64,000 nt of DNA from an uncultured Bacilli bacterium (lineage in GTDB: Bacteria; Bacillota_I; Bacilli_A; RF39; UBA660). Of this stretch, positions 2,634-45,895 are shown in pieces (within the stretch, counting starts at the first letter, position 1; the number at the start of each line of letters is the position of its first letter). The notes beneath the pieces are model-generated. The model was not told the origin of the DNA. It was given only the letters and a program-made list of their open reading frames with translations, and did not search any database. The position numbers were made by a program, and so were the translations under genes. The stretch covers positions 2,406-66,405 of the forward strand of contig CAKOXL010000003.1 in NCBI GenBank assembly GCA_934130105.1. Direction: 5' to 3'.

Positions 2634-2648
2634 ATGACATAAAAACAG

Positions 2649-3696: not shown

Positions 3697-4791
3697 ATGA
3701 AAAAATATAAAGTATGCGTATATGCTATCTGTAAAAACGAAGAAAAATTTATAGAACGTTGGGTAGAATCAATGAAGGAAGCTGATGAAATATACGTTTT
3801 AGATACTGGTTCAACTGATAATAGTATAAAATTATTAAAAAAATTAGGCGTAAATGTCAAAAAGAAAACATTTAAGCAATGGCGATTTGATAAAGCTAGA
3901 AATTTATCTTTAAAAATGGTACCTAAAGATACTGATATTTGTGTATGCACTGATATTGATGAAACGTTTGACAGTGGTTGGCGTGAAAAATTAGAAAATG
4001 CCTGGGAAAAAGGAAAAACCAATAGACTCTTATACACTTATAATTGGAGTCTTGATAAAAACAACAATCCACTAGTAACATTTTATACAGAAAAAATTCA
4101 TAGTAGAAATGATTATATATGGACACATCCAGTTCATGAGGTATTAACATACATTGGTAAAAATCAAGAAGAAACAAAGACCGTAGATGAAATAGTACTT
4201 AATCATTATCCTGACTTGAAAAAATCAAGAAGCAATTATTTAGAATTATTAGAGCTATCAGTCAAAGAAGATCCAAATGATGATAGAAATACGCATTACC
4301 TAGGTCGAGAATATATGTATCATGAAAAATGGAATGAGGCAATTGATACATTAATAAAACATTTATCATTAAAAAAAGCCACATGGAAGGATGAAAGATG
4401 TGCATCAATGAGATTTATTGCAAGATGTTATGAAAAATTAAAAAGATATGATGAAGCTAAAATGTGGCTAGATAAAGCAATATTAGAATCACCATACTTA
4501 AGAGATCCATACATGGAAAGAGCCATTCTAGAATATAATTTAGGAAACTATGAAGAAGTAGAAAAATATTGTTTAATGGCATTAAAAATAAATACCCATG
4601 AAAAAACTTATATAAATGAAGTTTTTAGTTGGAATAATACCGTTTATGACCTACTATCTTTGTGTTATTTTTACAAAAACGATCTAGAAAAAGCTATTTT
4701 TTATTTAAATATAGCGCTAGAAATGGAGCCAAATAATAAAAGGCTTAAAAATAACCTAAAAATAATGAAAAATATGATTAAAAATAATTAA
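3697..4791 (+). CDS. Family-2-like glycosyltransferase with C-terminal TPR repeats
   Basis: N-terminal VYAICKNEEKFIERWVESMKEADEIYVLDTGSTDNS...CTDIDE is a GT-A/GT2-type motif with a DxD-like element. The C-terminal half has TPR-like repeats (YLGREYMYHEKWNEAIDTLIKHL, ARCYEKLKRYDEAKMWLDKAI, EYNLGNYEEVEKYCLMAL, CYFYKNDLEKAIFYLNIALEMEPNN). It is embedded between collagen-like genes. Confidence 0.7.
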   Translation: MKKYKVCVYAICKNEEKFIERWVESMKEADEIYVLDTGSTDNSIKLLKKLGVNVKKKTFKQWRFDKARNLSLKMVPKDTDICVCTDIDETFDSGWREKLENAWEKGKTNRLLYTYNWSLDKNNNPLVTFYTEKIHSRNDYIWTHPVHEVLTYIGKNQEETKTVDEIVLNHYPDLKKSRSNYLELLELSVKEDPNDDRNTHYLGREYMYHEKWNEAIDTLIKHLSLKKATWKDERCASMRFIARCYEKLKRYDEAKMWLDKAILESPYLRDPYMERAILEYNLGNYEEVEKYCLMALKINTHEKTYINEVFSWNNTVYDLLSLCYFYKNDLEKAIFYLNIALEMEPNNKRLKNNLKIMKNMIKNN

Positions 4792-4845
4792 TACCATGTT
4801 GAATGTTAATTACCAAAATATATATTTATAAAGGAGAATCAAACC

Positions 4846-5433
4846 ATGAATAGATATCCAAGTTCAAACTGTTACCATATTATTAATGGAGCAACAGGTC
4901 CAATAGGGCCAACCGGACCAACTGGGCCTATTGGGCCAACAGGTATAACTGGGCCAACTGGACCTATCGGCCCTACCGGTGTAACAGGCCCTACTGGCCC
5001 TAGCGGTGAAGCATTTACTAAGGAATTCGCACATAAATATAACGATGAAGGCGATACCTTAGAACTAACAGCTAACATACCACATCAAGTTAGTTTAAAT
5101 ATTTCGGGTGAAGCATCAGGGATAACTGTAAATCTAGAAAACAGTATGATTATTAATTCATTTGGAACCTATAAAATTGAATATTTTTTCTCTGGATCTA
5201 TTTCTGATAATGCTGCATTAGTAGTTGAAGTAGATAATAATGATGTATCAATAAATGGAACTGAAATAAGTAAAGATGTAATTGTAAACACTGATACTGA
5301 TTTTCAAGGCGCCGTTATTGTTGTTGCTAATCCAAAGGATATTATAGATATGAAAGTTAGAGCTAATAAAAATGTAACTTTAACCCCTGCCCCAGACCTA
5401 AATGCATATTTAATAATAACAAAGTTGATATAA
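4846..5433 (+). CDS. Short collagen-like BclA-type protein (GPT/GPI repeats plus beta-type C-terminal domain)
   Basis: [41 protein letters not shown] is followed by a C-terminal domain alignable to that of 1734-2588 ([13 protein letters not shown] vs SGTYQIDYYFSGS; NAYLIITKL vs NAYLNIHKL). RBS AAGGAG. Confidence 0.85.
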
Positions 5434-5484
5434 ATATTAAAAATTTAGGTTTAAATAAAATCTCTCAAAACAAAATTATAAACA

Positions 5485-5516
5485 AAAAAGATTCGTGTTT
5501 TTATTACGAATCTTTT
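5485..5516. terminator. Bidirectional rho-independent terminator between the plus-strand collagen cluster and minus-strand tRNA-His
   Basis: Stem AAAAGATTCGT (5485-5495) pairs with ACGAATCTTTT (5505-5515). A/T runs lie on both sides. Confidence 0.7.
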
Positions 5517-5528
5517 TATTAACAAATA

Positions 5529-5605
5529 TGGGGCGGAATATGGGGATCGAACCCATGCATACCGGAGCCACAATCCGGCGTGTTAACCACTTCACCAATA
5601 CCGCC
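5529..5605 (-). tRNA. tRNA-His: tRNA-His (anticodon GTG)
   Basis: The reverse complement is GGCGGTATTGGTGAAGTGGTTAACACGCCGGATTGTGGCTCCGGTATGCATGGGTTCGATCCCCATATTCCGCCCCA. It has the extra 5' G typical of tRNA-His, anticodon loop TTGTGGC, T-loop GGTTCGATCC and an encoded CCA. Confidence 0.9.
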
Positions 5606-5714
5606 ATCAATGTATTAATTATTTAACTAAAAAATACATTCTTATTTTACCAACAAAATTTTCTTTTTGCAATACCTTTTTACTTATTTTAAATAAATAT
5701 CACACAATAAACAT

Positions 5715-6812
5715 TTATTTTACAACATAAGGATCATTTTCTGTACCAGTACCCTTTGAATATAAAACATCACTTGCTAAATGAACAACAGGTCTAATGT
5801 ATCCAGTAGAACTTGCTCTTGTAATAGTTACAGTACCATCTAGAGAAACTTTAAATACCTTATAAGTATTACTAGCATCACCAGTTAACAACCACCAATT
5901 AAAATTATAAACATCTAAATAATTATAATTAGAACAACTATCCGTCATAGCTGAATTACAGTTCTCATCAATACTTGCATTAATATAATCATATAAAGGC
6001 AATAAACCAATATATTGACTTTCTAAAAGTTGACTTTTTTCTATAGAACCATCATTATAAACATCTGCTTCATTACGTTTTCCAATACTTAAATCATATA
6101 AAGATAACATCTTTTTAGCACTATCACTAAGTAATGTGTTTTTACTATAAATATCATCAATAGAATCTCTAATTCTACTAACAGAATAATCATTAATACC
6201 ATCATTTCTATCACGATCAGCATTAAAACGATCATCCCAAGTAACAGAAGTTAATTTTTCATTTAATATTAAAACTACTTGATCACCACTAATTTTAACT
6301 ATTCTCCACATCTTTCCGCTAAAGTTAACATAGTTATTAGGATCTTGACCCTTAAACACTAATTCACCATTTTCTTCATATAACCCTTGTCCTGTATAAA
6401 CTATATTTTCATGATCTTTAATATATGAAGACAATGTCTTTGTAACATAACTACTACCACAATCTAATATTGGAGTATAACGATATTCTCCACCAACATA
6501 ACTTACTATAACAGTAGCACTACAACTAGCACCTTTCATGCTCTTAGTAAGTTCACTCATACTTTTTAAATATCCAGCTTGAGTCAAAGAAACATCTGTA
6601 GTTGAAACTTGTTCATTACCATCTTTAGGAAGAAGTTCAGTATGGTCAGAATAATATGCTTTTGCAGCATTTAATACTTTATTCTCTATACTCTTATAAC
6701 TAGTTTTTCCAAAAATAGAATTATAAATTAACAATATAATTATAATTAGTAAAACAACAACTACACAACCGCAAGATATCATTATTAATTTCTTTTTACC
6801 TAAATTTTTCAT
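5715..6812 (-). CDS. Hypothetical membrane-anchored extracytoplasmic protein
   Basis: ATG at 6812 preceded by AAGGAG. There is a single N-terminal TM segment (LIMISCGCVVVVLLIIIILLIY) and then a soluble domain of about 330 aa. I recognise no catalytic motif. Confidence 0.55.
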   Translation of the reverse strand: MKNLGKKKLIMISCGCVVVVLLIIIILLIYNSIFGKTSYKSIENKVLNAAKAYYSDHTELLPKDGNEQVSTTDVSLTQAGYLKSMSELTKSMKGASCSATVIVSYVGGEYRYTPILDCGSSYVTKTLSSYIKDHENIVYTGQGLYEENGELVFKGQDPNNYVNFSGKMWRIVKISGDQVVLILNEKLTSVTWDDRFNADRDRNDGINDYSVSRIRDSIDDIYSKNTLLSDSAKKMLSLYDLSIGKRNEADVYNDGSIEKSQLLESQYIGLLPLYDYINASIDENCNSAMTDSCSNYNYLDVYNFNWWLLTGDASNTYKVFKVSLDGTVTITRASSTGYIRPVVHLASDVLYSKGTGTENDPYVVK

Positions 6813-6935
6813 ACATATCTCCTTCATAAATCATACACCAATTATAACAAACTATTTTTTTTAATTCAATACTTTTACCCCTATAAAAATAGACATTTTA
6901 ACCATCATACATAAAAAAAGAAGCATAAATACTTC

Positions 6936-7502
6936 TTATCTAGCTTGTGGTAAATTTTCTTTATAATAATCATATAATTCTTTAAATCTAGCAAAATGTA
7001 CTATCTCACGTTGTCTTAGCCATAATAATGGTCCAATTATATCAGGATCATCAGTTAAATCAATCAAACTTTCATATACAGCACGTGCTTTTTCTTCTGC
7101 TGCCATATCTTCACTTAAATCGGCAAGTGCATCACCAGTTGTTGCAAAATATGTTACTGTAAATGGTACTCCACTTGCATCTACTGGATAAACAGCATTT
7201 TTATGTTCAGCATAGTGACTAGCTAAACCAGCTTCCTTCATCTCTTCAGGTGTTGCACCTTTCATTAATTGATATAACATTGCACAAATTATTTCAATAT
7301 GAGCTAACTCTTCTGTGCCTATATCAGTTAAAAGAGCTTTTCCTCTATTATCTGGCATTGTATATCTTTGATTTAAATAACGAAGAGCTGCACCCAATTC
7401 ACCACCAAAGCCACCATACTGAGTTACTAACTGTTTAGCAAAGGCTAAATTCTTTTTCTTAATTGAAACAGGATACTGTAATCTTTTTTCATATGCCCAC
7501 AT
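6936..7502 (-). CDS. cotJC: Spore coat protein CotJC (manganese-catalase/ferritin-like family)
   Basis: MWAYEKRLQYPVSIKKKNLAFAKQLVTQYGGFGGELGAALRYLNQRYTMP...TEELAHIEII is the characteristic CotJC N-terminus. I chose the start at 7502, which directly abuts the cotJB stop at 7504. Confidence 0.85.
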   Translation of the reverse strand: MWAYEKRLQYPVSIKKKNLAFAKQLVTQYGGFGGELGAALRYLNQRYTMPDNRGKALLTDIGTEELAHIEIICAMLYQLMKGATPEEMKEAGLASHYAEHKNAVYPVDASGVPFTVTYFATTGDALADLSEDMAAEEKARAVYESLIDLTDDPDIIGPLLWLRQREIVHFARFKELYDYYKENLPQAR

Positions 7503-7503
7503 C

Positions 7504-7950
7504 TTACATTTCCTCCATTTCCCATGGCCAAGCATACGCTTCCCAACTAAAGTCATTAGTATTAGATGGACTATCCGCTAAAATAGGCCCATACTTTCTT
7601 TCATATGCTTTTATAGCATCACTTGCCTTCTTCTGATAATCATTATATAAATTAATCATTCCCGTATCATTAGGATAAATATCTAAATAAAGTTTTACCT
7701 CATGAGCTGCAAAAGTTGTTTGATTAACATTTAATAATAATTCTGCTTGCTCATTATTAGGAATTAGTTTAGATGGTTGATAATTTAAATATTGATCATA
7801 TAAATTATTAAATAAATTACCTTTTATATATCCTTCATACATAGGCATTATGTTGCTATCAGATATACCTGTCTGATTTGGCATCATCATATTATTAAAT
7901 ATATTCATATCAGGATAGCCAAAATCATTAAAATTCATATTATTATTCAT
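7504..7950 (-). CDS. cotJB: CotJB spore coat protein with an N-terminal CotJA-like segment (apparent CotJA-CotJB fusion)
   Basis: The C-terminal half (HEVKLYLDIYPNDTGMINLYNDYQKKASDAIKAYERKYGPI...WEAYAWPWEME) matches my recollection of the CotJB pattern (LYLD.HP.D...YGPL...PWPWE). The N-terminal EGYIKGNLFNNLYDQY resembles the CotJA EAL..GTLWP.LY.PY motif. RBS GAGGAGAG. Confidence 0.7.
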   Translation of the reverse strand: MNNNMNFNDFGYPDMNIFNNMMMPNQTGISDSNIMPMYEGYIKGNLFNNLYDQYLNYQPSKLIPNNEQAELLLNVNQTTFAAHEVKLYLDIYPNDTGMINLYNDYQKKASDAIKAYERKYGPILADSPSNTNDFSWEAYAWPWEMEEM

Positions 7951-8009
7951 AAAATCTCTCCTCTAGTTTAGTTTATGACTTACTAACTATAAGGACTGGG
8001 CAAAAGCAC

Positions 8010-8033
8010 AAAAAAACTACCTTTAAGAGGTAG
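8010..8033 (-). terminator. Rho-independent terminator overlapping the AAA+ gene stop codon
   Basis: Minus strand reads CTACCT-CTTAA-AGGTAG followed by T7. The stop codon sits in the loop. Confidence 0.6.
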
Positions 8034-9699
8034 CTGTTTCTTCCATAATCAGTTTTTTAAACTTAATATCAAAGTTTTTTAATTCTTTATCAATAACATC
8101 TTGATAAATATTTTTTGAATTTTTAATAGCATTTCTAATATCCAAAATATTAACTTCATTTCTATTATTAAATACCGCTTGAGAAAAAGCTTGTGATAAT
8201 AAAGTTAAACAAATATCGGGATATCTAGAACCAATACCATATACTCTTTTATATTCACTGGTAATATCAACAATAAATGTCATAATTTCTACTTTAATAA
8301 AATCACTATATTTTAATTTAGCTCCAGTATTTTTCTCTATTTTAGGAAGGGTTCCTATTAATATTCTAACCGTATGCTCTTTATCAGGCTCCATAACATC
8401 AACTCTTTGAAAACGTCTTACAAAAGCCTTATCTCTTAAAACGTATCTTTCATATTCATCAGTAGTTGTTGCACCTATCATTTTGATACTACCACGACCT
8501 AAACTCTCTTTAAACATGTTAGCAAAATCTAAACTAGAATCACTAGTAGCACCCATTAACATATGAATTTCATCAATAAATAAAATCACTTTATCTAAAT
8601 CTTTCAATTCATCAATTAAAGTTTGAAGTCTAGTATCACCAGTTGGTAAAGTACCAAGTAACGATGTTGTTTTAACACTTATTATTCTATACCCCTTAAG
8701 CGCATCAGGAACTTTATTTCGCTGCAAAAGATATGCTAATCCTTCAACAATACTTGTTTTACCAATACCAGGTTTACCAACTAAAATACCTGATTTTTCC
8801 TGCGTTAGTAAAATTAAAATTAATTGTTTAATCTCTTCACTTCTACCAATTGCTGGATTAGTAACATAATCTCTACTGCAAAAATCATCACCATATCGCG
8901 CAAGAATACTGATTTTGTTAGTTTGCTGCTCTTTTAATGCTAATTCATTCAATAAATTTGATTTAGTAACAGGAAGCATAGATAAATCTTCTTCATCGGC
9001 ATAAGTTTTGGTATAAACTTCTGAACTAACTAAAGATTTATCTTTTTTTAGTTCTTCATCTATATTAATAATTTTAGGTATTACTTCTTCTACATATACA
9101 GGAGGTGTTTTTTCTTTTACTACTTCATCATCATCGAAATTTCTAATATTGGTTGGATTATTTCTCGTTGCCCTATATACTGTTTTTTCACTTTTATTAT
9201 CAAGCCAAACATTATTTTGAACTATTGGTATTTGATGGTTAGCTTGAATAGTTGATTTTAAAACCTCATTTTCTAAATCTTTATTAACACCAGTTGTAAC
9301 ATTAAATTCATCCTCTACTTTATTATTGGATTCAGTAGTTAAGATATAATCACGATTAGTTGGTTCTAAAAACTTTTCTTTATCATCGTTAACATTTCTA
9401 TTATCATTGCTAGGCTGATTATTAAGAAAATCAAAACTTTCCTGAGTTGATTTCTCGTTAGTGTTAGAAACATTATTAAAACTAGTAATATTAGTGTTAC
9501 CAAAATTATCAACATTAGCAGCATTATTAACACTACTAACATTATCACTTTTATTATTAATATTACTATAACTATTGAAATGGAAATTTTCTTGCTCATT
9601 TGGTAAAGCATTTTCATCTTGATTTAATGATTTATTATCTAATTGTTTGTAATAATCATCGGAAAAAATAAACAAACTATCTTTTCTTTCTTGATTCAT
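8023..9699 (-). CDS. Single-domain Clp/Hsp100 D1-like AAA+ ATPase with a long Asn/Ser-rich low-complexity N-terminal region
   Basis: GRSEEIKQLILILLTQEKSGILVGKPGIGKTSIVEGLA (Walker A), ILFIDEIHMLMGA (Walker B) and MIGATTTDEYERYVLRDKAFVRRFQRVDVMEP follow the ClpA/B/C first-AAA-domain pattern. No second AAA module is present. ATG at 9699 follows GAGGTGG. Confidence 0.7.
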   Translation of the reverse strand: MNQERKDSLFIFSDDYYKQLDNKSLNQDENALPNEQENFHFNSYSNINNKSDNVSSVNNAANVDNFGNTNITSFNNVSNTNEKSTQESFDFLNNQPSNDNRNVNDDKEKFLEPTNRDYILTTESNNKVEDEFNVTTGVNKDLENEVLKSTIQANHQIPIVQNNVWLDNKSEKTVYRATRNNPTNIRNFDDDEVVKEKTPPVYVEEVIPKIINIDEELKKDKSLVSSEVYTKTYADEEDLSMLPVTKSNLLNELALKEQQTNKISILARYGDDFCSRDYVTNPAIGRSEEIKQLILILLTQEKSGILVGKPGIGKTSIVEGLAYLLQRNKVPDALKGYRIISVKTTSLLGTLPTGDTRLQTLIDELKDLDKVILFIDEIHMLMGATSDSSLDFANMFKESLGRGSIKMIGATTTDEYERYVLRDKAFVRRFQRVDVMEPDKEHTVRILIGTLPKIEKNTGAKLKYSDFIKVEIMTFIVDITSEYKRVYGIGSRYPDICLTLLSQAFSQAVFNNRNEVNILDIRNAIKNSKNIYQDVIDKELKNFDIKFKKLIMEETATS

Positions 9700-9777
9700 A
9701 AAAATTTCCACCTCTTATTCTTTTGTTATTATTATAACATTTTTATATAAACTTTAAAACAAATTTAAAATAATTTT

Positions 9778-9827
9778 AATAAAAATAGTAGCTACATAAA
9801 TAAAATAAATTTATTCATTAGCTACTA
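9778..9827 (-). terminator. Rho-independent terminator downstream of the fourth collagen-like gene
   Basis: 9-bp stem TAGTAGCTA (9786-9794) pairs with TAGCTACTA (9819-9827). On the minus strand it is followed by a U-rich tract. Confidence 0.55.
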
Positions 9828-9933
9828 ATAAACATTTTATAAAAATACTAAGCCAAATAACACTAATTAAAAAATTAAATCTATCTAATAAAACAAGTTA
9901 TTAACATAAGTTATTAAATAGTAATTAAATGAT

Positions 9934-11112
9934 CTAATCTAATTTCATGACAGTTAATTTAGCAGTAGTAGTACCATCAAAAATTAATTCTGTATTTTGA
10001 TCAGTTGTAATATTAAGAGTAATCTCATCATCTTCTCTTAATCCAGCTAATATATGCCCATTTACAGCTGTTATAGTATTAGCTTTAGCTTGACCTTTTA
10101 TATCACTTGCTAACATTTTAGTACCTGAAACCTTTAAAGTAACTGTATAATTCGTATCAACAGAACTAGTAATATTTAAGAAATAGTCTATTCTATAAGT
10201 ACCATATCTTATTATCCCAATTGCATAAGAACTGTTATAAATAGCAAAAACAGCTGGTCCTGTTTCTTCAAGTGGTATGATAGTATCTGTATTGGCAGTA
10301 ACAGTAAAACGCTGGGTTGAGTTAGAATATCTTGTACCATAAGCTTCTATCCCGTTAGGATCACCTTTTGGTCCACGAAGACCTTGTTCTCCCTTTTCCC
10401 CTTTTGGAATATAAAATGTCAAATGATGAACTAAATTTTCAAAATCATCTAGTACTTGGGCATCATCTCCCGGTGAGATAGTTTCAGTACCATCTATCGA
10501 TATACCCTCACTTCTACCAATTTCTCCTGGTAGCCCTCTTGGACCTTGTTCGCCTTTTTCGCCAGGAGTACCTTGTTCTCCTTTTTCTCCCTTCGGAATA
10601 TAAAAAGTTAAGTGGTGAATTAATCCTTCTTGATCATCTTGAACTGAAGCCTCCTCATCTGGATTAATAGTTTCGGTACCATTAATCGTAATAACTTCAC
10701 TTCTTCCTATTTCACCAGGAAGTCCCCTTGGACCTATTGGTCCTTGTTCTCCTTGCTCTCCCTTTTCACCAGGTGTACCACGTGGTATTTTAAAATCTAA
10801 TATTACATCTTTATTCGTTCCAACATTGGTAACCACTGCCTCAGTACCAAAATCTCCTGTTTCAGTCTTTCCTACCGTGATTGTAGTTGGACCATTTTCA
10901 CCTCTTGGCCCCTGTGGCCCGGTTGGTCCCTGATTACCAGTATCTCCCTTTTCACCCTGCTCACCACGTAATCCCTGAATGCCTTGTGGACCAATAGGAC
11001 CAGTTGGCCCCTGAAGATAGCAATACCTAATATTATTACATGTCTTATCTAGGTAATTACTTCTTTTTTTGTTGCTTTTATTAAAAGAGTTATCCTGTAA
11101 ATTATTATCCAT
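9934..11112 (-). CDS. Collagen-like BclA-type protein with three embedded non-collagen modules and a beta-type C-terminal domain
   Basis: G-X-Y tracts ([41 protein letters not shown] etc.) are interrupted by modules of about 36 aa ending ...LDFKIPRG or ...LTFYIPKG. The C-terminal domain is YGTYRIDYFLNITS...KLTVMKLD. ATG at 11112 has better spacing from GGGAG than the one at 11118. Confidence 0.85.
   Translation of the reverse strand: MDNNLQDNSFNKSNKKRSNYLDKTCNNIRYCYLQGPTGPIGPQGIQGLRGEQGEKGDTGNQGPTGPQGPRGENGPTTITVGKTETGDFGTEAVVTNVGTNKDVILDFKIPRGTPGEKGEQGEQGPIGPRGLPGEIGRSEVITINGTETINPDEEASVQDDQEGLIHHLTFYIPKGEKGEQGTPGEKGEQGPRGLPGEIGRSEGISIDGTETISPGDDAQVLDDFENLVHHLTFYIPKGEKGEQGLRGPKGDPNGIEAYGTRYSNSTQRFTVTANTDTIIPLEETGPAVFAIYNSSYAIGIIRYGTYRIDYFLNITSSVDTNYTVTLKVSGTKMLASDIKGQAKANTITAVNGHILAGLREDDEITLNITTDQNTELIFDGTTTAKLTVMKLD
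10371..10728 (-). repeat. Tandem duplication of about 189 bp (63 aa) inside the collagen-like gene
   Basis: Protein units RGLPGEIGRSEVITINGTETINPDEEASVQDDQEGLIHHLTFYIPKGEKGEQGTPGEKGEQGP and RGLPGEIGRSEGISIDGTETISPGDDAQVLDDFENLVHHLTFYIPKGEKGEQG are adjacent. Confidence 0.8.
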
Positions 11113-11161
11113 ATACATTCTCCCTTCTTTTTATTCTATGCATATTGGTTAAAACAGGCCA

Positions 11162-22770: not shown

Positions 22771-23835
22771 CTACTCGGTAACAATCCAAGCAGTTGGAAT
22801 TCTTCTTAAAACACCTTGTGCACCAGTTGATGAAATTGGATTATTTAATAATTCTTGTCCTTCTAATAAAGCAGATGATGTACCACCGTCAAGGTTAGCA
22901 GCATTAACAGCTCCATAATTTTGCATTAATTCAGTTAAACCAACCATATCAATACCCAAGATACCACTAGTATAATTTCTACCATTAATAACAGCAAAAA
23001 GCACTATTCCATCAGCACGTTGTCCTATTGCACTACGAGGAGCAATTCCCCAACCACCATTTCCTTTTACAAATGAAGCTTTACCATTAACAATCAAGAA
23101 AGGTCCAAACTCAATAGCATCACGCATACCTTTAGCAAGTGCTTGACTGATAGACATTTTACCAAGAATTAGCTTGTTGTCTTTATCAAATCCAATAAAG
23201 CCACCACCTACCTGAGCATCATCATAATCATAAATAACTCTACCATCTTTTATAACAGTACCATGTGGAATCGCACCATTACCACTCCAAGTAGGATCAT
23301 AAAAGCCACTAGCATTCATACTAATTAAAGCATTATTATTTTTAGCAATTGTTTTTAAAGTTTGACCCTCTGTTCCTAATTTAGAACTAACAGCAAGTTT
23401 TACTTTTTCAGGTTTATAAACCGCTATAATATATCCATCATAGCCACTACCCTTAACTTTAATTTTTTTATAGATTGTATTTTCATCTACACCTTCGAAT
23501 AAATCTTTCTCATACTTGGAATTATATTTTCCATTATTATTAAAATCATCTATATCAATTAAATCAGGATTAGTATCTTCATCAACTTCAATCAAATAAT
23601 TATCAGCTAAAACTTTATTAATATATTCATCTGTATAAAACCAACGTGCTAAATATTGATGACTCATTGTAGTCATAGCTGTTGTAATTAGAAAATTTCT
23701 GAATTTAGCATATGGACCATATAATAAAAACAAACCACTTGATAGACCAATAATTCCAATTGAAAATAATAATAAAAATGCTCGTTTTACTTTAAGACTT
23801 ATTTTAAGTTTTGTCTTTTTATTACTCTTAGTCAT
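22771..23835 (-). CDS. Membrane-anchored phosphodiester glycosidase family protein (NAGPA/DUF2233-like)
   Basis: N-terminal TM segment. The C-terminal domain carries ISMNASGFYD, FGPFLIVNG, PRSAIGQRADG and NLDGGTSS, characteristic of the phosphodiester glycosidase domain as I recall it. Confidence 0.55.
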   Translation of the reverse strand: MTKSNKKTKLKISLKVKRAFLLLFSIGIIGLSSGLFLLYGPYAKFRNFLITTAMTTMSHQYLARWFYTDEYINKVLADNYLIEVDEDTNPDLIDIDDFNNNGKYNSKYEKDLFEGVDENTIYKKIKVKGSGYDGYIIAVYKPEKVKLAVSSKLGTEGQTLKTIAKNNNALISMNASGFYDPTWSGNGAIPHGTVIKDGRVIYDYDDAQVGGGFIGFDKDNKLILGKMSISQALAKGMRDAIEFGPFLIVNGKASFVKGNGGWGIAPRSAIGQRADGIVLFAVINGRNYTSGILGIDMVGLTELMQNYGAVNAANLDGGTSSALLEGQELLNNPISSTGAQGVLRRIPTAWIVTE

Positions 23836-23850
23836 AACTACCCTCCAATA

Positions 23851-24420
23851 CTAATTACTACTTTTTCCAATAAATTCTCCATCAGAATTAATATCAACAT
23901 ATTGATACTTAGAAACATAGTTTTTAAAATTAGTATCATTATCATTTAAATCTTTTTCTCTACGAAACTCTTCAATTACATCATTAAAAGATAAAATATC
24001 TTTCGTATAATAATTTATAACTGTTTCATAAGCAATTATAAAAGCATCACATTTATTCATAATATCACTATTAGAATAATGTTTATTAACACAATTTTCT
24101 TTTAAAAATGAAGACGAATCATTAACTGCATCAACACTTTCAGTATATTTATCTAATATTAAAATCCAATCATCATAGTTATCTTCAACTGTTTCAGTAA
24201 AAAGATTACTAACAACTTCACTATAGTAAGAACTTCTTCTTTCATTAAATGATTCAACTTTTTTTCTAAAATTATCATCCTGTTCTACTATATCGAATTC
24301 TAATTTATTTTGTTTATATTTACTGCTACTAACTCTTTCATAAACAATAATAGCAATACCGGAACCAATAAGTAACAAACCAAAAACTAATATTAAAAAT
24401 ATTATTTTTCTTCTTTTCAT
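23851..24420 (-). CDS. Hypothetical membrane-anchored protein
   Basis: RBS GGGAGG. There is one N-terminal TM segment (IIFLILVFGLLLIGSGIAIIVY) and then an acidic soluble region. No recognisable motifs. Confidence 0.5.
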   Translation of the reverse strand: MKRRKIIFLILVFGLLLIGSGIAIIVYERVSSSKYKQNKLEFDIVEQDDNFRKKVESFNERRSSYYSEVVSNLFTETVEDNYDDWILILDKYTESVDAVNDSSSFLKENCVNKHYSNSDIMNKCDAFIIAYETVINYYTKDILSFNDVIEEFRREKDLNDNDTNFKNYVSKYQYVDINSDGEFIGKSSN

Positions 24421-24488
24421 TTATTCCTCCCTTTATTCTTAAAACAGTATATCAAAAAAAATACAATTTGTCTAATAAAAAGTGGAAG

Positions 24489-25076
24489 TTATCCCTTATA
24501 AAAATAAGATATAAATTTAGAAAAATAAAATAATATCTGTGAACTTTTATTAATTGCAAATGCTTTACCAATTGCTTTACCGCCTATTGTTAATGAAGCA
24601 ACAATAGCAGTTACCAAAAGACTAACACTAAATAAATTAAGATTTAGACTATTAGCTATCGCACTAGATAATAAAGCACTAGCCGATCCACTGACAATTC
24701 CACATATATCACCAATAACATCGTTACAAAAGCTAGAGGCTTTTTCACTATTCTTAATTAATTTTACTCCTATTTTAGCACCTCTTACTTGTTTTGATGC
24801 CATCGAATTAAATACTTTAAGATCTGCAACAGTTATAGCTACACCTACCATATCAAATAAAATACCAATACCAATAAATAATAGTATAACAACAACAGCT
24901 AAAATACTACCAGCATTGGGAATAGCTGTTTCTGAAAAAAAAGAAAAAGCAAGAGAAATAAAAAAGGCCAATAAAGTTACTTTACTAATCCACTTATAAT
25001 CAACTAATTTTTTATTTTTTACCGTTTTCTTAAGAACTTTTGTCTCATATTTATCTTTACATTTTTTATATTTCAT
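24489..25076 (-). CDS. oapA: Four-TM membrane protein with a Lys-rich N-terminus and a DxxxD motif; OapA-like (OLE-associated protein A) candidate
   Basis: 195 aa. N-terminus MKYKKCKDKYETKVLKKTVKNKKL, four hydrophobic segments, and motif CNDVIGDICG (D-x3-D). A GAGG RBS starts about 2 nt after the U-tract of the upstream structured RNA, and the ATG follows about 10 nt after it. The symbol is tentative. Confidence 0.5.
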   Translation of the reverse strand: MKYKKCKDKYETKVLKKTVKNKKLVDYKWISKVTLLAFFISLAFSFFSETAIPNAGSILAVVVILLFIGIGILFDMVGVAITVADLKVFNSMASKQVRGAKIGVKLIKNSEKASSFCNDVIGDICGIVSGSASALLSSAIANSLNLNLFSVSLLVTAIVASLTIGGKAIGKAFAINKSSQILFYFSKFISYFYKG

Positions 25077-25085
25077 TTCAACCTC

Positions 25086-25660
25086 AAAAAAAATAAGAAA
25101 TGGTCGTTAATAAAGTAAACCTTGTATCTTAGGTCAAGTTGGATTTCCCTACTTTCAACTTATCGTTACCAATAAGCGGTTCCCCATTAAAGAAAGCAAT
25201 AGATTGTCACCAATTCTATGACTTGATTACCACTTAGCATACACTGCAATCCAATATTAATACTACACCCTAGGAGTTTTCCTCAAACACTTTAAATTTA
25301 TTATTATGCTTTTTTGCAATAATTGTTTCAAGTAGCAATACTTAATAAAAGATGTACACCTTATATTAAGCTGTCTCTATCCCCAACTATCACGCAAGCC
25401 AAGCTACGCTACCCATAGATTTCTCCACATGATAGGTTTAATCCTAAGTCGTAAAATATTATTTCACAAGATTAGGTCTCCGCAAGAAAATGGGTCGTTC
25501 CTCATATGCCATTATAAGCGCCCACAATCTCTTCCAACCAGCACCTACCCAATACTGGGCGTATTAAGCAAGCACCAGATGTTTCATAGATGTGCTCTTT
25601 AACGAATTTTTAGGCTCGTCTTCATAATAACTAAAGTGACTAGAATAATGCACCACTTCT
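25086..25660 (-). ncRNA. Large structured non-coding RNA of about 575 nt; OLE-like (ornate large extremophilic RNA) candidate
   Basis: The spacer 25077-25709 (633 nt) has no ORF in any frame of the track and is visibly more G+C-rich than neighbouring spacers. The predicted 5' AAGAAGUGGU pairs with the 3' ACCAUUUCUU (10 bp, one G-U) immediately before U8. Internal hairpins include CCCA-GUAU-UGGG, CUUAAUA-N16-UAUUAAG, CUUAU-N8-AUAAG and AAGUUG-N13-CAACUU. Confidence 0.55.
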
Positions 25661-25666
25661 TATATT

Positions 25667-25695
25667 ATTATATTATATTCAATGAAAAATTTCAA
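25667..25695 (-). promoter_or_regulatory. Sigma-A promoter for the large ncRNA (TTGAAA-17-TATAAT)
   Basis: The -35 TTGAAA is at plus 25690-25695, the spacer is 17 nt, and the -10 TATAAT is at plus 25667-25672. Confidence 0.55.
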
Positions 25696-25709
25696 ATGAT
25701 TAATATTAC

Positions 25710-26270
25710 TTAAATAACTTCCAAATTTCTATCAGCTAAAAGGGCAAATAATTTTTTATGTTCTTCAGTATAAGGAACATAGTCCTTATCCCCTTCTTTA
25801 AATATATCTTCCAAATATTCATAATATACATACTTAATATCTGTTAACTCTTCAACTTGAAGTTTCGTCTTTTCAACATTTAAATCCCTATGCAATAAAT
25901 ATACATCATCAAAAACACGTATATATGAATCTTTATAAGGTTGAACACGCTTTATAGTAAATAAGAATTCTAATTCACTAGCATCAGCATCAATATCTAA
26001 TTCTTCCTTAAGTTCACGTAAACCAGACTGAACACTATCCTCACCAGCTATAACATGTCCAGCAGATGAAATTGCCCATAAATTAGGAAAAGTCTTTTTT
26101 AAAGGATTTCTCTTTTGAACTAATAATTCTTGGTTACAATTCATTATCCAAATATGAACAGAACGATGCCAAAGTCCTTTATTATATACTTCTTCTTTCG
26201 TTTCAACTATTCCTGTTTTATTACCATTTTCATCTAACACATCTAATAATTCTGTCATAACATCACTCAT
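25710..26270 (-). CDS. NUDIX hydrolase (isopentenyl-diphosphate isomerase-like subfamily)
   Basis: Nudix box GHVIAGEDSVQSGLRELKEELDI, preceded by GLWHRSVHIWI...LLVQKRNPLKKTFPNLW. I chose the start at M10 (26270) because a TATAAT element lies inside the longer track ORF. Confidence 0.7.
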   Translation of the reverse strand: MSDVMTELLDVLDENGNKTGIVETKEEVYNKGLWHRSVHIWIMNCNQELLVQKRNPLKKTFPNLWAISSAGHVIAGEDSVQSGLRELKEELDIDADASELEFLFTIKRVQPYKDSYIRVFDDVYLLHRDLNVEKTKLQVEELTDIKYVYYEYLEDIFKEGDKDYVPYTEEHKKLFALLADRNLEVI

Positions 26271-26436
26271 ACTATCACCTATTATAGAATAACACATTAA
26301 AAATTTTTTTCTATATTTTTTTTAGCTACTTTACATAATTAGATATAATAATTAAGTTAACTTGTTGATAATTTATTGATACTTGCTACAAACAGCATTC
26401 ATAATTGGAAGATTTCAATATTAAGTGTAAATTACA

Positions 26437-33661: not shown

Positions 33662-34567
33662 TTAATGCTTAAATCTTTTCATAATTTTTGCAAACGCATA
33701 CTTTGTAGAACGAATAGGGCCATTTGTAAATATACCTTTTATTGTTTGCTCAGTACTTTCTTTTTTATTTAGTTTCGTAAAATATTCTAATATTTTTGAT
33801 TTAATAGAAGCTAAATCGTAACAATTACTACTATTTAAATAATTAGCTAATTCTGGTGGTAATAAATCAACACTTTTTATTAACTCTTGGTAATCAACAA
33901 TTAAACTAGTATCATCATTAACATTAACATAATTATTTTTACCATAAATTTTATTTAAATCCTCATAGCCGCCTTCAACAATATTAATTACTTTACGAGG
34001 ATTTTCAGCAAATTTCATTCTAGTATCACCTAAATAAGATAAAGAACAAATCTGAACATATAAATCAAATAATTTATTGTTATTATTATCAGGCAAAGTA
34101 AGTAAAGCCGTCAAAACAGCAGAATTCCTATTTTCCTCATTAGCTTCATCAATTAATTTAGAATTAGTAATAGCAAGTATATTTTTTTGAAATCTACCAG
34201 GTAAATAAAAACTCTTCCAACTTCGTAAATACAAAATTAAATCTTTTTCTTCAATTGTACCATATTTGTAGGTGCTATTTTTATAATTTATATTACTCAA
34301 ATAAGTAATACCAGTACTACCCTTTAGTTTTTTTAAGCTAGCATGCTTAAAATACAATTTTCCGGTAAACGAATAATCACTTGGATTAATCATCATATTT
34401 TTTAAATGCCATTCTTTTAAATTTTCAACAACAAAAATCAAATCTATTTGTGGTTTATCGTTCGTTGTATAACTACTTTGTTTAAATATACCCGAACCAT
34501 AACCATAAACCGCTATTACTTTTGGCCTTTTTTTAACAAATTCCTTTATTTCTTTTACATCAACCAC
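33662..34567 (-). CDS. Tam41/Mmp37-like nucleotidyltransferase (homologue of mitochondrial phosphatidate cytidylyltransferase)
   Basis: AVYGYGSGIFKQ...QIDLIFVVENLKEWHLKNMMINPSDYS...KYGTIEEKDLILYLRSWKSFYLPGRFQKNI parallels the Tam41 signature as I recall it (YGSGVF.Q, iDfIf.V, WH..N...N..HYS, KYGV, DL..W..LYlaGRlqKP). Apparent GTG start. Confidence 0.6.
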   Translation of the reverse strand: MVDVKEIKEFVKKRPKVIAVYGYGSGIFKQSSYTTNDKPQIDLIFVVENLKEWHLKNMMINPSDYSFTGKLYFKHASLKKLKGSTGITYLSNINYKNSTYKYGTIEEKDLILYLRSWKSFYLPGRFQKNILAITNSKLIDEANEENRNSAVLTALLTLPDNNNNKLFDLYVQICSLSYLGDTRMKFAENPRKVINIVEGGYEDLNKIYGKNNYVNVNDDTSLIVDYQELIKSVDLLPPELANYLNSSNCYDLASIKSKILEYFTKLNKKESTEQTIKGIFTNGPIRSTKYAFAKIMKRFKH

Positions 34568-41107: not shown

Positions 41108-44100
41108 TTAGAATAAAGTCATCTGACTAGATTCTGGTAAATCTTTTAAAATACCCATAATACGCATTTTATCAATTAACGTCTGCGATATCTTAGCACG
41201 TTTTTGTAAATCTTCAACACTTAAAAATTCTTTATTTTGTCTTTCAGCTACAATGTTTTGAGCAACAGTATCACCAAGTCCATCAATTGAATTAAATGGT
41301 GGATATATTTCTGTATCACTTGCTGCCTTCCAAACAGTAGCCTCACTTTTATATAAATCTACATTCAAGAATTTAATACCACGAGCACTAGCTTCTAACG
41401 CAATCTTTAAACTTTCAAGTTGGCCATTTTCCTTATTAGTTGCTTCATAACCTTTTTCTTTGATATCCATAATACGATTTTTAATTGGAGTATAACCACC
41501 TATCATAGCTTCGATATCAACATCTGTTGCTTTAGAAGAATACCATGAAGCATAAAAATATACTGGCATATGAACCTTATACCATGCAATTCTAAAAGCA
41601 CTAATAACATAAGCTGCGGCATGCGCTTTTGGGAACATATATTTAATCTTACGACAAGATTCAATGAACCACTCTGGAATATCTGCTTCTCTCATTGTTT
41701 CTACATGACTTTTCCAAGTTTCTGGATCTTTACTAGCTTTTCCTTTACGAACAAACTCCATAATTTTGAAAGCTTTAATAGGTTTTACGCCATGATACAT
41801 TAAATAAACCATAATATCATCACGACAGCCAATTGTTTCTTTAAATGGTACTTGAATATTACCATTCTCATCTGGAGTACATAAATCTTTAGCATTACCA
41901 AGCCATACATCAGTACCATGTGACAAACCTGATATTTTAATAAGTTCGGCAAAGGTTGTTGGCTTAGTATCTTCAACTAACTGAATCGTAAATGGTGTAC
42001 CAAATTCAGGGATACCTAAAGTACCCGTATTACACATAATTTCTTCTTTTGTAACTCCAAGAGCTTTAGTTGATGTAAAAATACTCATAGTTTCCTTATC
42101 ATCAAGTGGAACCTTCATAATATCAGTACCAGACTGTAGTTGAATCAAACGAAGTTGTGTAGGATCAGAATGACCTAAAATATCTAGTTTTAACACACAC
42201 TCTTCAATAGAGTGATAATCAAAATGGGTTGTTCTCCAAGCTGATGTTGGATCTTCTGCTGGAAATTGGAATGGCGTAAAGTCAAAACAATCTTTATAAT
42301 CCGGAATAACGACAATACCACCAGGATGTTGGCCGGTTGTTCTTTTAACACCTGTACAGCCAATAGCTAAACGCTCAACTTCAGCAGTACGCATATTCAT
42401 AATACCCTTATCCTCTAAATAACCCTTTACAAAACCAAAAGCTGTTTTATCAGCAACAGTACCAATAGTACCAGCACGATAAACATTATCTTTACCAAAT
42501 AGTACCTTTGTATAAGCATGGGTAGAAGCTTGATTTAAATCGGAAAAGTTTAAGTCAATATCAGGTACTTTATCTGCATTGAATCCTAAGAAAGTAGCGA
42601 ATGGCATATCTTGTCCATCTTTTAAAAGTGGAATATGACAATTAGGACACTCTTTATCTGGTAAATCAAAACCTGAAGAATAAGTAGCACCAAGTGAATT
42701 ACCATCTTCATCTTCAAAAATACTAAGTTTACACTTACTACAACGGTAGTGAGCTGATAACGGATTAACTTCTGTAATTCCCATCATGGTAGCTACGAAA
42801 CTAGATCCAACGGAACCACGGGAACCAACTAGATACCCTTCATCATTAGAGTGCTTAACAAGTCTTTGGGCAATTAAGTAAATAGGGTCAAATCCAGCAC
42901 CAATAACGCCACCTAAAGAAGCCTTTAGTTTTTTCTCTAAGCTATCATCATCTAACTCTTCTTCACTTGTTTCTTTTAAATACTTTCTAACCTGATTAAA
43001 AACACTATCCCTACCATTTACGATTACCTCATGAAGCCTTTTAAAAGATTCTACTTTTAATTCTTCACCTTCTAAATCTTTTAAATCATATTTAATAGAA
43101 GTTAAAACAATATCACCATAAAGCTCAGTTCCTAATCTTTCTTCAATTGAATAAGGTAAAGGATCTCCATACCAATCATTAGCCTTAGTATAAACTAAGT
43201 CTGTAACTACTCTAGGACAATCCAAATAACTCTTTTCATCATCACTTTTAACACGTGGTGAAAATGGCGTTCCACCAGTATCAGGAATAACCTCTATTTC
43301 ATCTACCATATCTAAAACCTTATTGGTGTTTTCTACAACTATTTTGTAAGCTAAATCTTTATCAAGGAAAGAAAAGTCATTTAACATTTCTTCTGTTGTT
43401 CTAAAATGCTGTGATGGAATAGAAGTAATATCCTTTTTCGCTAAAGGGTGTCTTCCACCACCTGGCACTTTTTGATTTACGATAATTTCACGATAAATCT
43501 TATCTCCTCTTTCAAAATGATGAACATCACCTGTTGCAACAATAATTTTACCAGCATCCATTGTGGCATTAATAATTTTTATTAAATGATTTTTTAATTC
43601 CTTATCGTCTTTAAAATCACCCATTTGTAGTAAATGATCATATACTTCAGGAGGTTGTACTTCTACATAATCATAAAAGTTAATAACATTGGTTAATTCT
43701 TCCCCCTCTTTACTTCTAGCTTCTGTAAATACTTCTGATTCATAACAACCACTACCAATTAAAAGTCCTTCTCTTAATTCGTTCAATTTACTTCTTAAAA
43801 TACGTGGCGTTTTATATAAATAAGTAGTATTAGCAAGTGAAATAATCTTAAATAAATTTTTAAGTCCTACTTGGTTTAAGGCAATTGCATTAAAGTGGAA
43901 AGTTCGACCAAATTTATAAATTTCATCTTTAGAAACTAGTTTCTCTAAATCACTAATTTTTTCAAACTTTTGCATCTCTAGTTTCTTTAACATTTTACTA
44001 AATACATAGGCAGTTCCCTCAGCATCATAATCTGCTCTATGGTGGGCATCCTCTTCCCAAGGTACATCATATCTTTTAACAAGAGCTGATAAAGAATGTC

Positions 44101-45895
44101 TACTAAACCCTTGATCTAGGGTACGAGAAAGTTCTAAGGTATCAATAACTGTATTTTGAAACTCTCCTAAATTATACTTTTTCATAGCCATCTCAATAAA
44201 TGAAATATCAAACTTTGCATTATGAGCAACCATTGGTAAATTACCAGTCCACTCTAAGAACATTTTTGTAACTTCTTCTTCTGATTTTTTTCCTCTTACC
44301 ATATCATCTGTAATACAAGTAAGTTCAGTAATTTTATCTGGAATGTGTCTTTTTGGATCTATCAATTCATCAAAACGATCAATAATTTCGCCATCTTTAA
44401 TCTTAACGGCACCAATTTCAATCATCTGGTCAGCGCCACCTGCATTAAAACCGGTTGTTTCTGTATCGAAAACTACATAAGTATTATGAAGTAAATCATC
44501 ATCAGTTGGTCTTACTACAATATTAACGACATCATCTACTAGTGTTAATTCAGTACCATAAAGTCCTTTAAAAATAGGAGGATTTTTTAACTCTTCTTTT
44601 TTCTGTTCTAATTCGTTCGAAAGTTCTAATTTAACATTTTCATCTGTTTCTTCACTAATTTTTGTCTCTAACTCTTCTATCTTTTCCTTTATCTTTTTAC
44701 GAACACCTTTATTATGACCTTTAATAATACCAAAGGAAATAGGAAATGCTTGACAGCCATTATGATCTGTAATTGCAACTCCTCTATATCCCATTTGAAT
44801 GGTGCGTTCTACTAATTCACAAGTATGTTTTCCCAAATCAAGTTTGGTAACGCCATCCATTTGACTCATCATAGTATGGGCATGAAGTTCAACTCTTTTA
44901 ACTGGTGCATTATCTTCTATCTTGTTTGTCTCTTTATTTACAATATTAATATCTCTAGCATTTAATACTAATTCTTTAGAAAATTGATCATTTTTAGTAT
45001 ATCCGCGTATAATAAACCATTTTCCATCTTTTAAAGTTTTTTTCTTAGTATTAAAATCCTCTTCACCACGGCAAAAAACTTTACAGTAAATACTATCAGA
45101 ATAATCTGTAATTTTTAAAGTAATAATTTTAAAATCCGTTTTACTAGATTCAAAATAATCTACTCCAAAAACATAACCCTCAACAGTAATAGGATCCATC
45201 TCACCTACTATATTCTTAATTTGGGTAGGAGTATCATTAATTGTTCTACCAACAATAGCATTTGGATTATCATCTTTCTTTTCTTTATGAAAATTGTTAT
45301 TATAATTACCATTATTACTACGATAATTACTTTTTTCTGTATCAGTTGAAGTATTAGTATCAATGGTAATATCCTTTTTTATATCATTTAAATCAGAAAG
45401 AATCGCATTTTTTATAGAATTATCTTTTTCTGGATTTAAAAATATATCAAGTGGTGTATCAAATCCTGCTAAAAATAAAATATAATTTAACTTAGGTAAT
45501 ATTTGCTGTAACTGTTTTTCTTCTTCATTATTACTTACTTCTATTTTAAAGTCATCAATTATTAAATTATCATTAAAAATACTAGAAAAAAGTAAAATAT
45601 CTCTACATTTTTCTAAAGCATATAAATAATAATCATTCAACTTACTTAAATCTTTATTACTAGCTACTACTTGAATATAAACACTCTTTACATTACGAAA
45701 AGCATTATCAGATAACTCAACTAAAGTCTTATAGTCATCAACATCAAGCGTACTTTCACTGTTAAGTACAAACGTCCAACTTCCATTTTTTTCGTTAACT
45801 TTAACTTTCTCAAGTGTAATTCCACTTAATTTATTTCTAGTATTACTATCTAAATTAATCTGATCAAATAAGATATTTATTTTATTTTCTTTCAT
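41108..45895 (-). CDS. polC: DNA polymerase III alpha subunit PolC (Gram-positive type, with 3'-5' exonuclease)
   Basis: PHP VELHAHTMMSQMDG, exonuclease VVFDTETTG...HNAKFDISF, and a polymerase core. The low-complexity insert near the N-terminus makes it longer than typical PolC. The start at 45895 follows GGGGGTAG. Confidence 0.92.
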   Translation of the reverse strand: MKENKINILFDQINLDSNTRNKLSGITLEKVKVNEKNGSWTFVLNSESTLDVDDYKTLVELSDNAFRNVKSVYIQVVASNKDLSKLNDYYLYALEKCRDILLFSSIFNDNLIIDDFKIEVSNNEEEKQLQQILPKLNYILFLAGFDTPLDIFLNPEKDNSIKNAILSDLNDIKKDITIDTNTSTDTEKSNYRSNNGNYNNNFHKEKKDDNPNAIVGRTINDTPTQIKNIVGEMDPITVEGYVFGVDYFESSKTDFKIITLKITDYSDSIYCKVFCRGEEDFNTKKKTLKDGKWFIIRGYTKNDQFSKELVLNARDINIVNKETNKIEDNAPVKRVELHAHTMMSQMDGVTKLDLGKHTCELVERTIQMGYRGVAITDHNGCQAFPISFGIIKGHNKGVRKKIKEKIEELETKISEETDENVKLELSNELEQKKEELKNPPIFKGLYGTELTLVDDVVNIVVRPTDDDLLHNTYVVFDTETTGFNAGGADQMIEIGAVKIKDGEIIDRFDELIDPKRHIPDKITELTCITDDMVRGKKSEEEVTKMFLEWTGNLPMVAHNAKFDISFIEMAMKKYNLGEFQNTVIDTLELSRTLDQGFSRHSLSALVKRYDVPWEEDAHHRADYDAEGTAYVFSKMLKKLEMQKFEKISDLEKLVSKDEIYKFGRTFHFNAIALNQVGLKNLFKIISLANTTYLYKTPRILRSKLNELREGLLIGSGCYESEVFTEARSKEGEELTNVINFYDYVEVQPPEVYDHLLQMGDFKDDKELKNHLIKIINATMDAGKIIVATGDVHHFERGDKIYREIIVNQKVPGGGRHPLAKKDITSIPSQHFRTTEEMLNDFSFLDKDLAYKIVVENTNKVLDMVDEIEVIPDTGGTPFSPRVKSDDEKSYLDCPRVVTDLVYTKANDWYGDPLPYSIEERLGTELYGDIVLTSIKYDLKDLEGEELKVESFKRLHEVIVNGRDSVFNQVRKYLKETSEEELDDDSLEKKLKASLGGVIGAGFDPIYLIAQRLVKHSNDEGYLVGSRGSVGSSFVATMMGITEVNPLSAHYRCSKCKLSIFEDEDGNSLGATYSSGFDLPDKECPNCHIPLLKDGQDMPFATFLGFNADKVPDIDLNFSDLNQASTHAYTKVLFGKDNVYRAGTIGTVADKTAFGFVKGYLEDKGIMNMRTAEVERLAIGCTGVKRTTGQHPGGIVVIPDYKDCFDFTPFQFPAEDPTSAWRTTHFDYHSIEECVLKLDILGHSDPTQLRLIQLQSGTDIMKVPLDDKETMSIFTSTKALGVTKEEIMCNTGTLGIPEFGTPFTIQLVEDTKPTTFAELIKISGLSHGTDVWLGNAKDLCTPDENGNIQVPFKETIGCRDDIMVYLMYHGVKPIKAFKIMEFVRKGKASKDPETWKSHVETMREADIPEWFIESCRKIKYMFPKAHAAAYVISAFRIAWYKVHMPVYFYASWYSSKATDVDIEAMIGGYTPIKNRIMDIKEKGYEATNKENGQLESLKIALEASARGIKFLNVDLYKSEATVWKAASDTEIYPPFNSIDGLGDTVAQNIVAERQNKEFLSVEDLQKRAKISQTLIDKMRIMGILKDLPESSQMTLF

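Follow-up and report, generated by a model that had tools for sequence, protein, structure and literature searches.

We identified an ole-oapA locus on the minus strand of a 64,000-nt stretch of contig CAKOXL010000003.1 (hereafter the window), from an uncultured Bacilli bacterium. It comprises a full-length-type gene for the ornate, large, extremophilic (OLE) RNA and, 10 nt further on, the gene for the membrane anchor OapA; we put the probability that this is a genuine locus of the kind at about 0.96. OLE RNA and OapA have been under study since 2006, and the pair found here is a copy of that described system, not a novel type of element. A 2024 survey gives 2,822 OLE hits across Bacillota, uncultured gut lineages among them. 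An earlier note, made from the raw sequence alone, had already recognised the region as an OLE/OapA ribonucleoprotein locus; this is borne out by a match to the OLE covariance model, by covarying helices, and by an OLE-adjacent DxxxD protein with a CNNM-like fold. Nothing was found that contradicts the OLE family assignment. The significance of the locus beyond correct annotation is small, and standard annotation detects the family. It is a compact, clean and very AT-rich example, with promoter, RNA, U-tract, ribosome-binding site (RBS) and oapA inside 1.2 kb, and it could be of comparative use in work on the terminal P1 helix, on the dimer loop L9.3, and on the coupling of ole and oapA expression.

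Family match and covariation of the RNA

The whole window was scanned with all 4227 Rfam models. RF01071 (OLE), whose gathering score is 50 bits, matches 25084-25672 of the minus strand at 387.6 bits (E 2.4e-110), covering model positions 1-616 of 616 and not truncated. This is the single Rfam match in the ole region; within 24400-26400 no other family appears even at a permissive E <= 1, and the ROOL, GOLLD, raiA, RNase P, tmRNA and group II intron models, proposed earlier as controls, gave no competing match there. When the Rfam consensus structure is projected onto the window RNA, 153 of its 159 pairs are kept, 138 of these 153 being canonical. The terminal helix also forms in the minimum free energy (MFE) fold of the single sequence (z = -3.48). 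None of the conserved OLE motifs is missing (GUGGUGCA, UUCUAGUCA, CUAAAAAU, AAUGGCAU, GGAGACC, UGAAAC, CUAAGUGGUAAUC, GGGAAAUCC and GACCUAAG). We considered a match driven by base composition; the canonical pairs and the invariant motifs rule it out.

The spacer that holds the RNA (25077-25709, 633 nt) has no gene-sized open reading frame (ORF) in the ORF listing for all frames. The earlier wording, no ORF in any frame, was too strong: there are 10 ORFs of 20-57 aa, the longest an ATG ORF of 57 aa on the opposite strand (25429-25602), and none above 30 aa on the minus strand. As had been noticed, the spacer is less AT-rich than others, with 33.8% G+C vs 13.5-24.6% in the 18 other spacers of at least 100 nt; the figure for the window is 27.7%.

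The 195-aa protein encoded after the RNA has 6946 homologues in a large protein collection and about 1130 clusters at 50% identity, and a profile-guided scan that took one genome per species yielded 80 related loci. The nearest of these (74% protein identity) are from uncultured 'Bacilli bacterium' metagenome-assembled genomes (MAGs) of rabbit and other guts, and farther ones are labelled Erysipelotrichaceae, Mollicutes, Oscillospiraceae and Clostridia. With the window RNA as nhmmer query, OLE-like sequence was found upstream of the protein gene, on the same strand, at 76 of the 80 loci. Spot checks with Rfam gave OLE matches of 360-410 bits in L001, L007, L030 and L068, which carry Bacilli, Oscillibacter and Clostridia labels; L075 has a truncated copy. 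Three further loci have OapA homologues (49-53% identity for L031 and L048, 43% for L071), and neither nhmmer nor Rfam found OLE in the 4 kb on each side at L031 and L048, or at L071, where only 564 nt are available upstream. These are possibly orphan oapA genes, or their ole may lie elsewhere.

We aligned 45 full-length copies with MAFFT and counted the pairs of the Rfam structure plus the terminal helix, using 500 shuffles and sliding of the 3′ partners as controls. Standard pairs fill 85.4% of cells (73.2% shuffled, 38-45% slid), pairs changed on both sides number 115 of 163 (88.8 shuffled, 50-68 slid), and the covariation score is 0.409 (0.179 shuffled, 0.08-0.13 slid); none of the 500 shuffles reached the observed values. 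The Rfam helices are therefore supported by covariation in orthologous spacers, and the slid controls collapse. Helix 17, the P13-type hairpin, shows compensatory change in all 8 of its pairs, and helix 2, the first Rfam hairpin, in 5 of 6, with 91.9% pairing. The weak spot is the distal P9 region (helices 10-12), at 45-67% paired, probably due to misalignment by MAFFT.

The earlier note had also described a closing helix between the two ends of the RNA. The helix is real: AAGAAGUGGU and ACCAUUUCUU form 10 bp, including one G-U, 7 of the 10 pairs show compensatory change, and among the 45 sequences pairing holds in 76.8% of cells. UGGU/ACCA of the window clade, for example, becomes UGGC/GCCA elsewhere. 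Given this covariation and the text of Wallace et al., the terminal helix is probably the published OLE P1 stem.

Several sites point to known partners, with P numbers mapped to Rfam helices from published text. The first Rfam hairpin may, as a guess, be P4a, one of the two mapped OapA-binding regions; OapA sites are described as 'in or near P2 and P4a' (PMC12265935). OapC and bS21 binding in OLE involves k-turn nucleotides of J4a/5 together with J6/7, and the candidate stretches AUCUAUGAAAC (25591-25581) and GCGGAGACC (25483-25475) are present, most of their positions being invariant or nearly so in the relatives. OapB needs a GNRA loop and a bulge on P13 (PMC7936274), and the predicted P13-type hairpin has this architecture of the primary OapB-binding site, while the predicted P14.1-type hairpin corresponds to the weak secondary OapB site of B. 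halodurans (PMC7936274).

In 44 of the 45 aligned sequences the L9.3 loop contains a tetranucleotide that is self-complementary (GGCC in 24, GUAC in 8, AGCU in 7, GCGC in 3 and CUAG in 2). This fits the symmetric kissing-loop bridge B3 in the OLE structure from cryo-electron microscopy (cryo-EM), with its covarying palindromes GGCC, GAUC and AGCU (PMC12286853), and by analogy we infer that L9.3 of the window would act as a homodimer kissing loop. GUAC is the allele of the window clade, and L046 has GUAUAC. As a separate observation on the same alignment, the P7-type hairpin of many relatives holds a conserved insert of about 40 nt (GCCUAUACG ... CUGAYGGAC; alignment columns ~227-268, e.g., ~3560-3600 of L007) that is absent from the window and its nearest relatives.

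The downstream protein

The product of oapA has 195 aa and a mass of about 21 kDa. The features ascribed to it earlier, a Lys-rich N-terminus, hydrophobic helices and a DxxxD motif, are all there. Of the first 30 residues, 12 are Lys or Arg. Hydropathy is highest at about residues 29-48, 55-85 and 145-165, and an amphipathic helix bearing DxxxD brings the predicted count to about four. DVIGD (residues 119-123) is the only D...D match of this form in the sequence. Both of its aspartates are invariant in 59 homologues at 33-53% identity to the window protein, as are D75, G122, G130, K167 and K171 (the aspartates being D119 and D123).

No named OapA model turned up in Pfam or NCBIfam, and NCBIfam gave no match of any kind to the 195-aa protein. 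Searching PDB sequences with the family profile returned neither a match nor an OapA chain. The AlphaFold2 model built on the alignment (pLDDT 91.5, pTM 0.79) has helices at 27-83, 110-144 and 148-176, and its top four Foldseek matches in PDB are the archaeal CNNM protein MtCorB (7M1T chains B and A, and 7M1U_A) and the transmembrane domain of CorC (7CFF), with probabilities of 0.97-1.00 and TM-scores of 0.30-0.59 (TMq 0.45-0.48, TMt up to 0.59); all remaining matches have probability 0.14 or less. OapA of Halalkalibacterium halodurans has itself been superimposed on 7M1U, and is reported to be a remote CNNM homologue set apart by DxxxD (PMC11332333). We rejected membership of the window protein in CNNM/DUF21 proper: the Pfam CNNM match (PF01595) is sub-threshold (19.0 bits vs a gathering score of 28.4, E 1.2e-3) and CBS and CorC domains are absent, making it a distant relative, not a member. 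The protein shows every OapA hallmark that was tested. We infer its homology to characterised OapA from its co-location with Rfam-confirmed OLE in distant Bacillota.

Expression of ole and oapA and competing readings

The near-consensus minus-strand promoter reported earlier, TTGAAA-17-TATAAT, scores 11/12 and is the top site of the region. It lies 5-6 nt ahead of where pairing begins and gives a predicted transcription start at about 25661-25659. A promoter of at least 10/12 occurs at the same position in 45 of 66 related loci, compared with 0 of 259 control positions; in the relatives it ends 3-12 nt ahead of the P1 start, and in 15 of the 45 it is a perfect TTGACA-17-TATAAT. B. halodurans OLE has its own proximal promoter, which is active (PMC3413148). 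A further promoter-like site, TTGAAA-17-CATAAT (25331-25303, minus strand, 10/12), lies within ole and overlaps the invariant UGAAAC motif; it could be a chance occurrence or an internal start for oapA mRNA.

At the other end of the RNA, the earlier description stands with small corrections. U8 is present but is separated from the closing helix by one A, and the GAGG RBS abuts the U-tract instead of lying about 2 nt beyond it; the ATG some 10 nt past the U-tract does open the 195-aa ORF. This arrangement, in which the 3′ strand of P1 runs straight into a U-run with the oapA RBS close by, is shared by the window with L001-L004, L017, L036, L050, L064 and L065. Many other loci have a separate hairpin-plus-U terminator after P1 and sometimes an extended -10 box before oapA. 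Examples of this second layout are L007, L009, L012, L014, L028, L040, L041 and L045 (at ~3900-4000 in locus coordinates), some with TGnTATAAT. Expression of ole and oapA is thus coupled in two ways among the loci, and the separate terminators in many relatives argue for selection on a defined 3′ end of OLE.

By extrapolation from work on H. halodurans and Clostridium acetobutylicum, the window OLE would accumulate as a stable and abundant RNA of about 0.58 kb, and would homodimerise through the GUAC kissing loop among other contacts. OapA would bind it and either tether the RNA to the cell membrane or insert it there. The resulting particle may help the cell cope with alcohols, cold, excess Mg2+ and poor carbon sources, and OapA is possibly a divalent-cation transporter under regulation by OLE RNA. 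Since the U-tract and the RBS leave no space between them in which a promoter could fit, oapA would have to be translated from transcripts that read through P1 and U8 or that start inside ole; P1 with U8 would then be a partial terminator or 3′-end determinant, yielding more RNA than mRNA. A bolder version is that in this lineage P1 with U8 has replaced the hairpin terminator and the oapA promoter as OLE terminator or 3′-end determinant, with GUAC, GCGC and CUAG marking lineage-specific dimerisation partners. We hold this proposal tentatively and think the odds are against it. If it were true, OapA synthesis would depend entirely on read-through, and the ratio of RNA to protein would be governed by how a 550-nt RNA domain folds.

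Some points weigh against the locus being a working ole-oapA pair of the usual kind. P1 with U8 is not a canonical terminator: the helix encloses a 'loop' of about 550 nt, U8 comes after a long-range A/U-rich helix and not a short G+C-rich hairpin, and its role in termination is putative. The usual ole neighbourhood of isoprenoid, DNA repair and translation genes is not seen among the annotated neighbours. Genes for OapB, OapC/YbxF and bS21 are absent from the 64-kb window, which says little on the remaining genome. Expression, stability, membrane localisation and phenotype would all be carried over from other species to an organism known from metagenomes only.

The earlier note had offered as its fallback an undescribed large structured RNA that merely resembles OLE and has a dedicated membrane partner of its own. 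That idea rested only on a possible failure to match Rfam and is without support after testing, as the OLE model matches end to end with a score like those of the related loci and every conserved OLE motif is present. Because OLE model, covariation and downstream protein family all agree with OLE/OapA, a new analogue is ruled out for practical purposes. Rather less negligible, though still improbable, is a reduced 'variant' OLE of genome-reduced gut lineages with fewer protein partners. Fernando and Breaker (PMC11332333) distinguish three types: full-length, variant 1 (TANB77), in which P7-P9 are short and the OapB site on P13 is often lost, and variant 2, common in RF39, in which P7 and P8 are missing. 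The nearest relatives of the locus are gut MAGs labelled Bacilli, Tenericutes, Mollicutes and Erysipelotrichaceae, labels that RF39-type genomes often bear; the P7-type hairpin is about 10 nt under consensus and lacks the insert of many relatives, the small hairpin at model ~424-434 is missing, and neither oapB nor oapC lies within the window. Yet the P7- and P8-type hairpins are present and paired, so that we rejected variant 2 identity, and the bulged, GUGA-capped P13 that variant 1 typically loses is intact. The bit score equals that of full-length examples, and the host has peptidoglycan and spore-coat genes, unlike strongly reduced symbionts. With P7, P8, and the GNRA loops of both P13 (GUGA) and P14.1 (GUAA) predicted from its sequence, the window RNA is of the full-length type.

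A reading that we also consider unlikely, though slightly less so than the variant, takes the element as mainly a cis-acting, long structured 5′ leader of the oapA mRNA and not as a separately accumulating RNA. The 10 nt from U-tract to ATG cannot accommodate a separate oapA promoter, a consensus scan of 24300-26400 scored no canonical intrinsic terminator, and H. halodurans OLE is at least partly co-transcribed with neighbouring genes (PMC3413148). Against this, the clear hairpin-plus-U terminators that many relatives have between ole and oapA indicate selection for a discrete 3′ end, the window retains U8 right after the closing helix, and B. halodurans OLE gives one stable band, its half-life being about 3 h (PMC3413148). 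The roles of leader and discrete RNA are in any case not mutually exclusive. We therefore keep to a full-length-type OLE RNA followed by its OapA gene, and its features are given in Table 1.

Table 1. Features of the ole-oapA locus in window coordinates
Feature	Position	Strand	Basis or remark
SigA/sigma-70-type ole promoter	25667..25695	-	-35 TTGAAA 25695-25690, 17 nt, -10 TATAAT 25672-25667; 11/12
OLE RNA (ole), ~576 nt from predicted start to U-tract end	25086..25661	-	RF01071 match spans 25084-25672
Terminal helix, 5′ strand, probable P1, AAGAAGUGGU	25652..25661	-	pairs with 25104-25095
Terminal helix, 3′ strand, probable P1, ACCAUUUCUU	25095..25104	-	covariation, MFE fold, sequence
U8 tract, putative leaky non-canonical termination point or OLE 3′ end	25086..25093	-	sequence; layout kept in nearest relatives
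First Rfam hairpin, loop CUAAAAAU (GACGAGCCUAAAAAUUCGUU)	25601..25620	-	RF01071 alignment; helix 2 covariation
P7-type hairpin	25476-25443	-	helix 6 of covariation count; P number taken from text
P8-type hairpin	25436-25409	-	helix 7 of covariation count; P number taken from text
L9.3 loop UGUACA, self-complementary GUAC 25357-25354	25353..25358	-	palindrome in 44/45 relatives
P13-type hairpin, GUGA (GNRA) tetraloop, one-nucleotide bulge	25199..25219	-	AUAGA-A-UUG-GUGA-CAA-UCUAU
P14.1-type hairpin, GUAA (GNRA) tetraloop	25158..25177	-	RF01071 alignment; helix 19 of covariation count
oapA ribosome-binding site GAGG	25082..25085	-	5 nt ahead of ATG at 25076
oapA, 195 aa, DVIGD residues 119-123 (nt 24722-24708)	24489..25076	-	ORF, homologues, fold model

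Neighbouring genes, host and comparison with known systems

The gene upstream of ole (25710-26297) encodes a Nudix hydrolase, as the earlier note had it, but its likeness to isopentenyl diphosphate (IPP) isomerase holds up less well. Its best NCBIfam matches are indeed type 1 IPP isomerase models, at scores far below cutoff (TIGR02150, 56.8 vs 105.8 bits; NF002995, 53.7 vs 127). The catalytic cysteine of E. coli IDI probably aligns with an alanine of this Nudix protein. The gene is upstream of ole in none of the fetched related loci, the closest included. A functional link to isoprenoid metabolism through this gene was rejected because the match is sub-threshold and the neighbour is not conserved.

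On the other side, oapA is followed on the minus strand (22771-24420) by genes for a 189-aa membrane protein, which has an N-terminal membrane helix and no family match, and for a protein with a NAGPA phosphodiester-glycosidase domain, and then by PFOR. These downstream genes are syntenic with ole-oapA in the 5-9 nearest loci (e.g., L001, L002, L004, L006, L036, L037 and L053). In the search of the window for partner genes, ORFs of 87 and 120 aa had no Pfam or PDB match, and among the small intergenic ORFs just one could be identified, by eye, as ribosomal protein bL28.

Other genes of the window describe the host. Replication and repair are represented by PolC, DnaE and RecG, cell-wall synthesis by Ddl, a Mur ligase (MurF) and a racemase, signalling by CdaA/CdaR, and housekeeping by Lon, trigger factor and GreA; a 1150-aa PFOR-like ORF was named by Pfam hits on an identical contig. 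PolC (1605 aa) and DnaE (978 aa) are nearly adjacent (41108-49904, minus strand), with one 287-aa ORF without Pfam match between them. A spore/exosporium cluster at 309-11118 includes a SpoIID-like protein with peptidoglycan-binding repeats (309-1661), CotJB (7504-7950), a manganese catalase of CotJC type (6936-7556), and three BclA-like collagen-repeat proteins (1734-2588, 4846-5433 and 9934-11118). PolC/DnaE, the PFOR-like ORF, Ddl, MurF, CotJB/CotJC and the BclA-like proteins together indicate a walled, probably spore-forming anaerobic member of Bacillota, and the host is an uncultured low-GC gut bacterium of the class Bacilli. Such a host agrees with where OLE is known to occur and with the correlation reported between OLE and sporulation genes.

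Two unrelated features were also observed. An HD-domain ORF (52916-53695) and ValS (50392-52935) are directly preceded by a T-box leader (53696-53899, minus strand, 121.4 bits); since the HD-domain ORF as called reaches right up to the T-box, it probably starts farther downstream. A match to the 'mitochondrial' phosphatidate cytidylyltransferase Tam41/Mmp37 (E 1.9e-60; 33662-34567, minus strand) adjoins tRNA-Lys and tRNA-Thr genes.

Compared with known OLE loci, the window differs in several respects. Its RNA is very AT-rich (35% GC), with helices mostly of A-U and G-U pairs, and relative to the Rfam consensus it has the shortened P7-type hairpin and lacks the small hairpin noted above. The L9.3 palindrome is GUAC, whereas the cryo-EM paper (PMC12286853) names GGCC, GAUC and AGCU. 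Its 3′ closing strand leads at once to U8 and the oapA RBS where many relatives have a separate terminator hairpin, and, unlike known loci, it is without the usual ole neighbour genes. As to the protein, Mg2+ transporters of the CNNM/CorB/CorC/MpfA group have a transmembrane helical bundle similar to that modelled for the window protein, but the latter has only 195 aa, is without CBS or CorC domains, and has the DxxxD that CNNM domains lack (PMC11332333).

The likenesses are more extensive. The window RNA has the helix order and the invariant single-stranded motifs of OLE from H. halodurans and C. acetobutylicum. Like those RNAs it has a proximal promoter of its own and a terminal stem where the 5′ end has been mapped, GNRA loops cap both P13 and P14.1, and the L9.3 loop is self-complementary. 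Here too oapA follows at once, and the host belongs to Bacillota and looks anaerobic and spore-forming. The window protein in turn has in common with OapA the position right after ole, a mass of about 21 kDa, a basic N-terminus with membrane helices, and DxxxD, and its predicted fold, like that of OapA, is closest to CNNM/CorB transmembrane domains.

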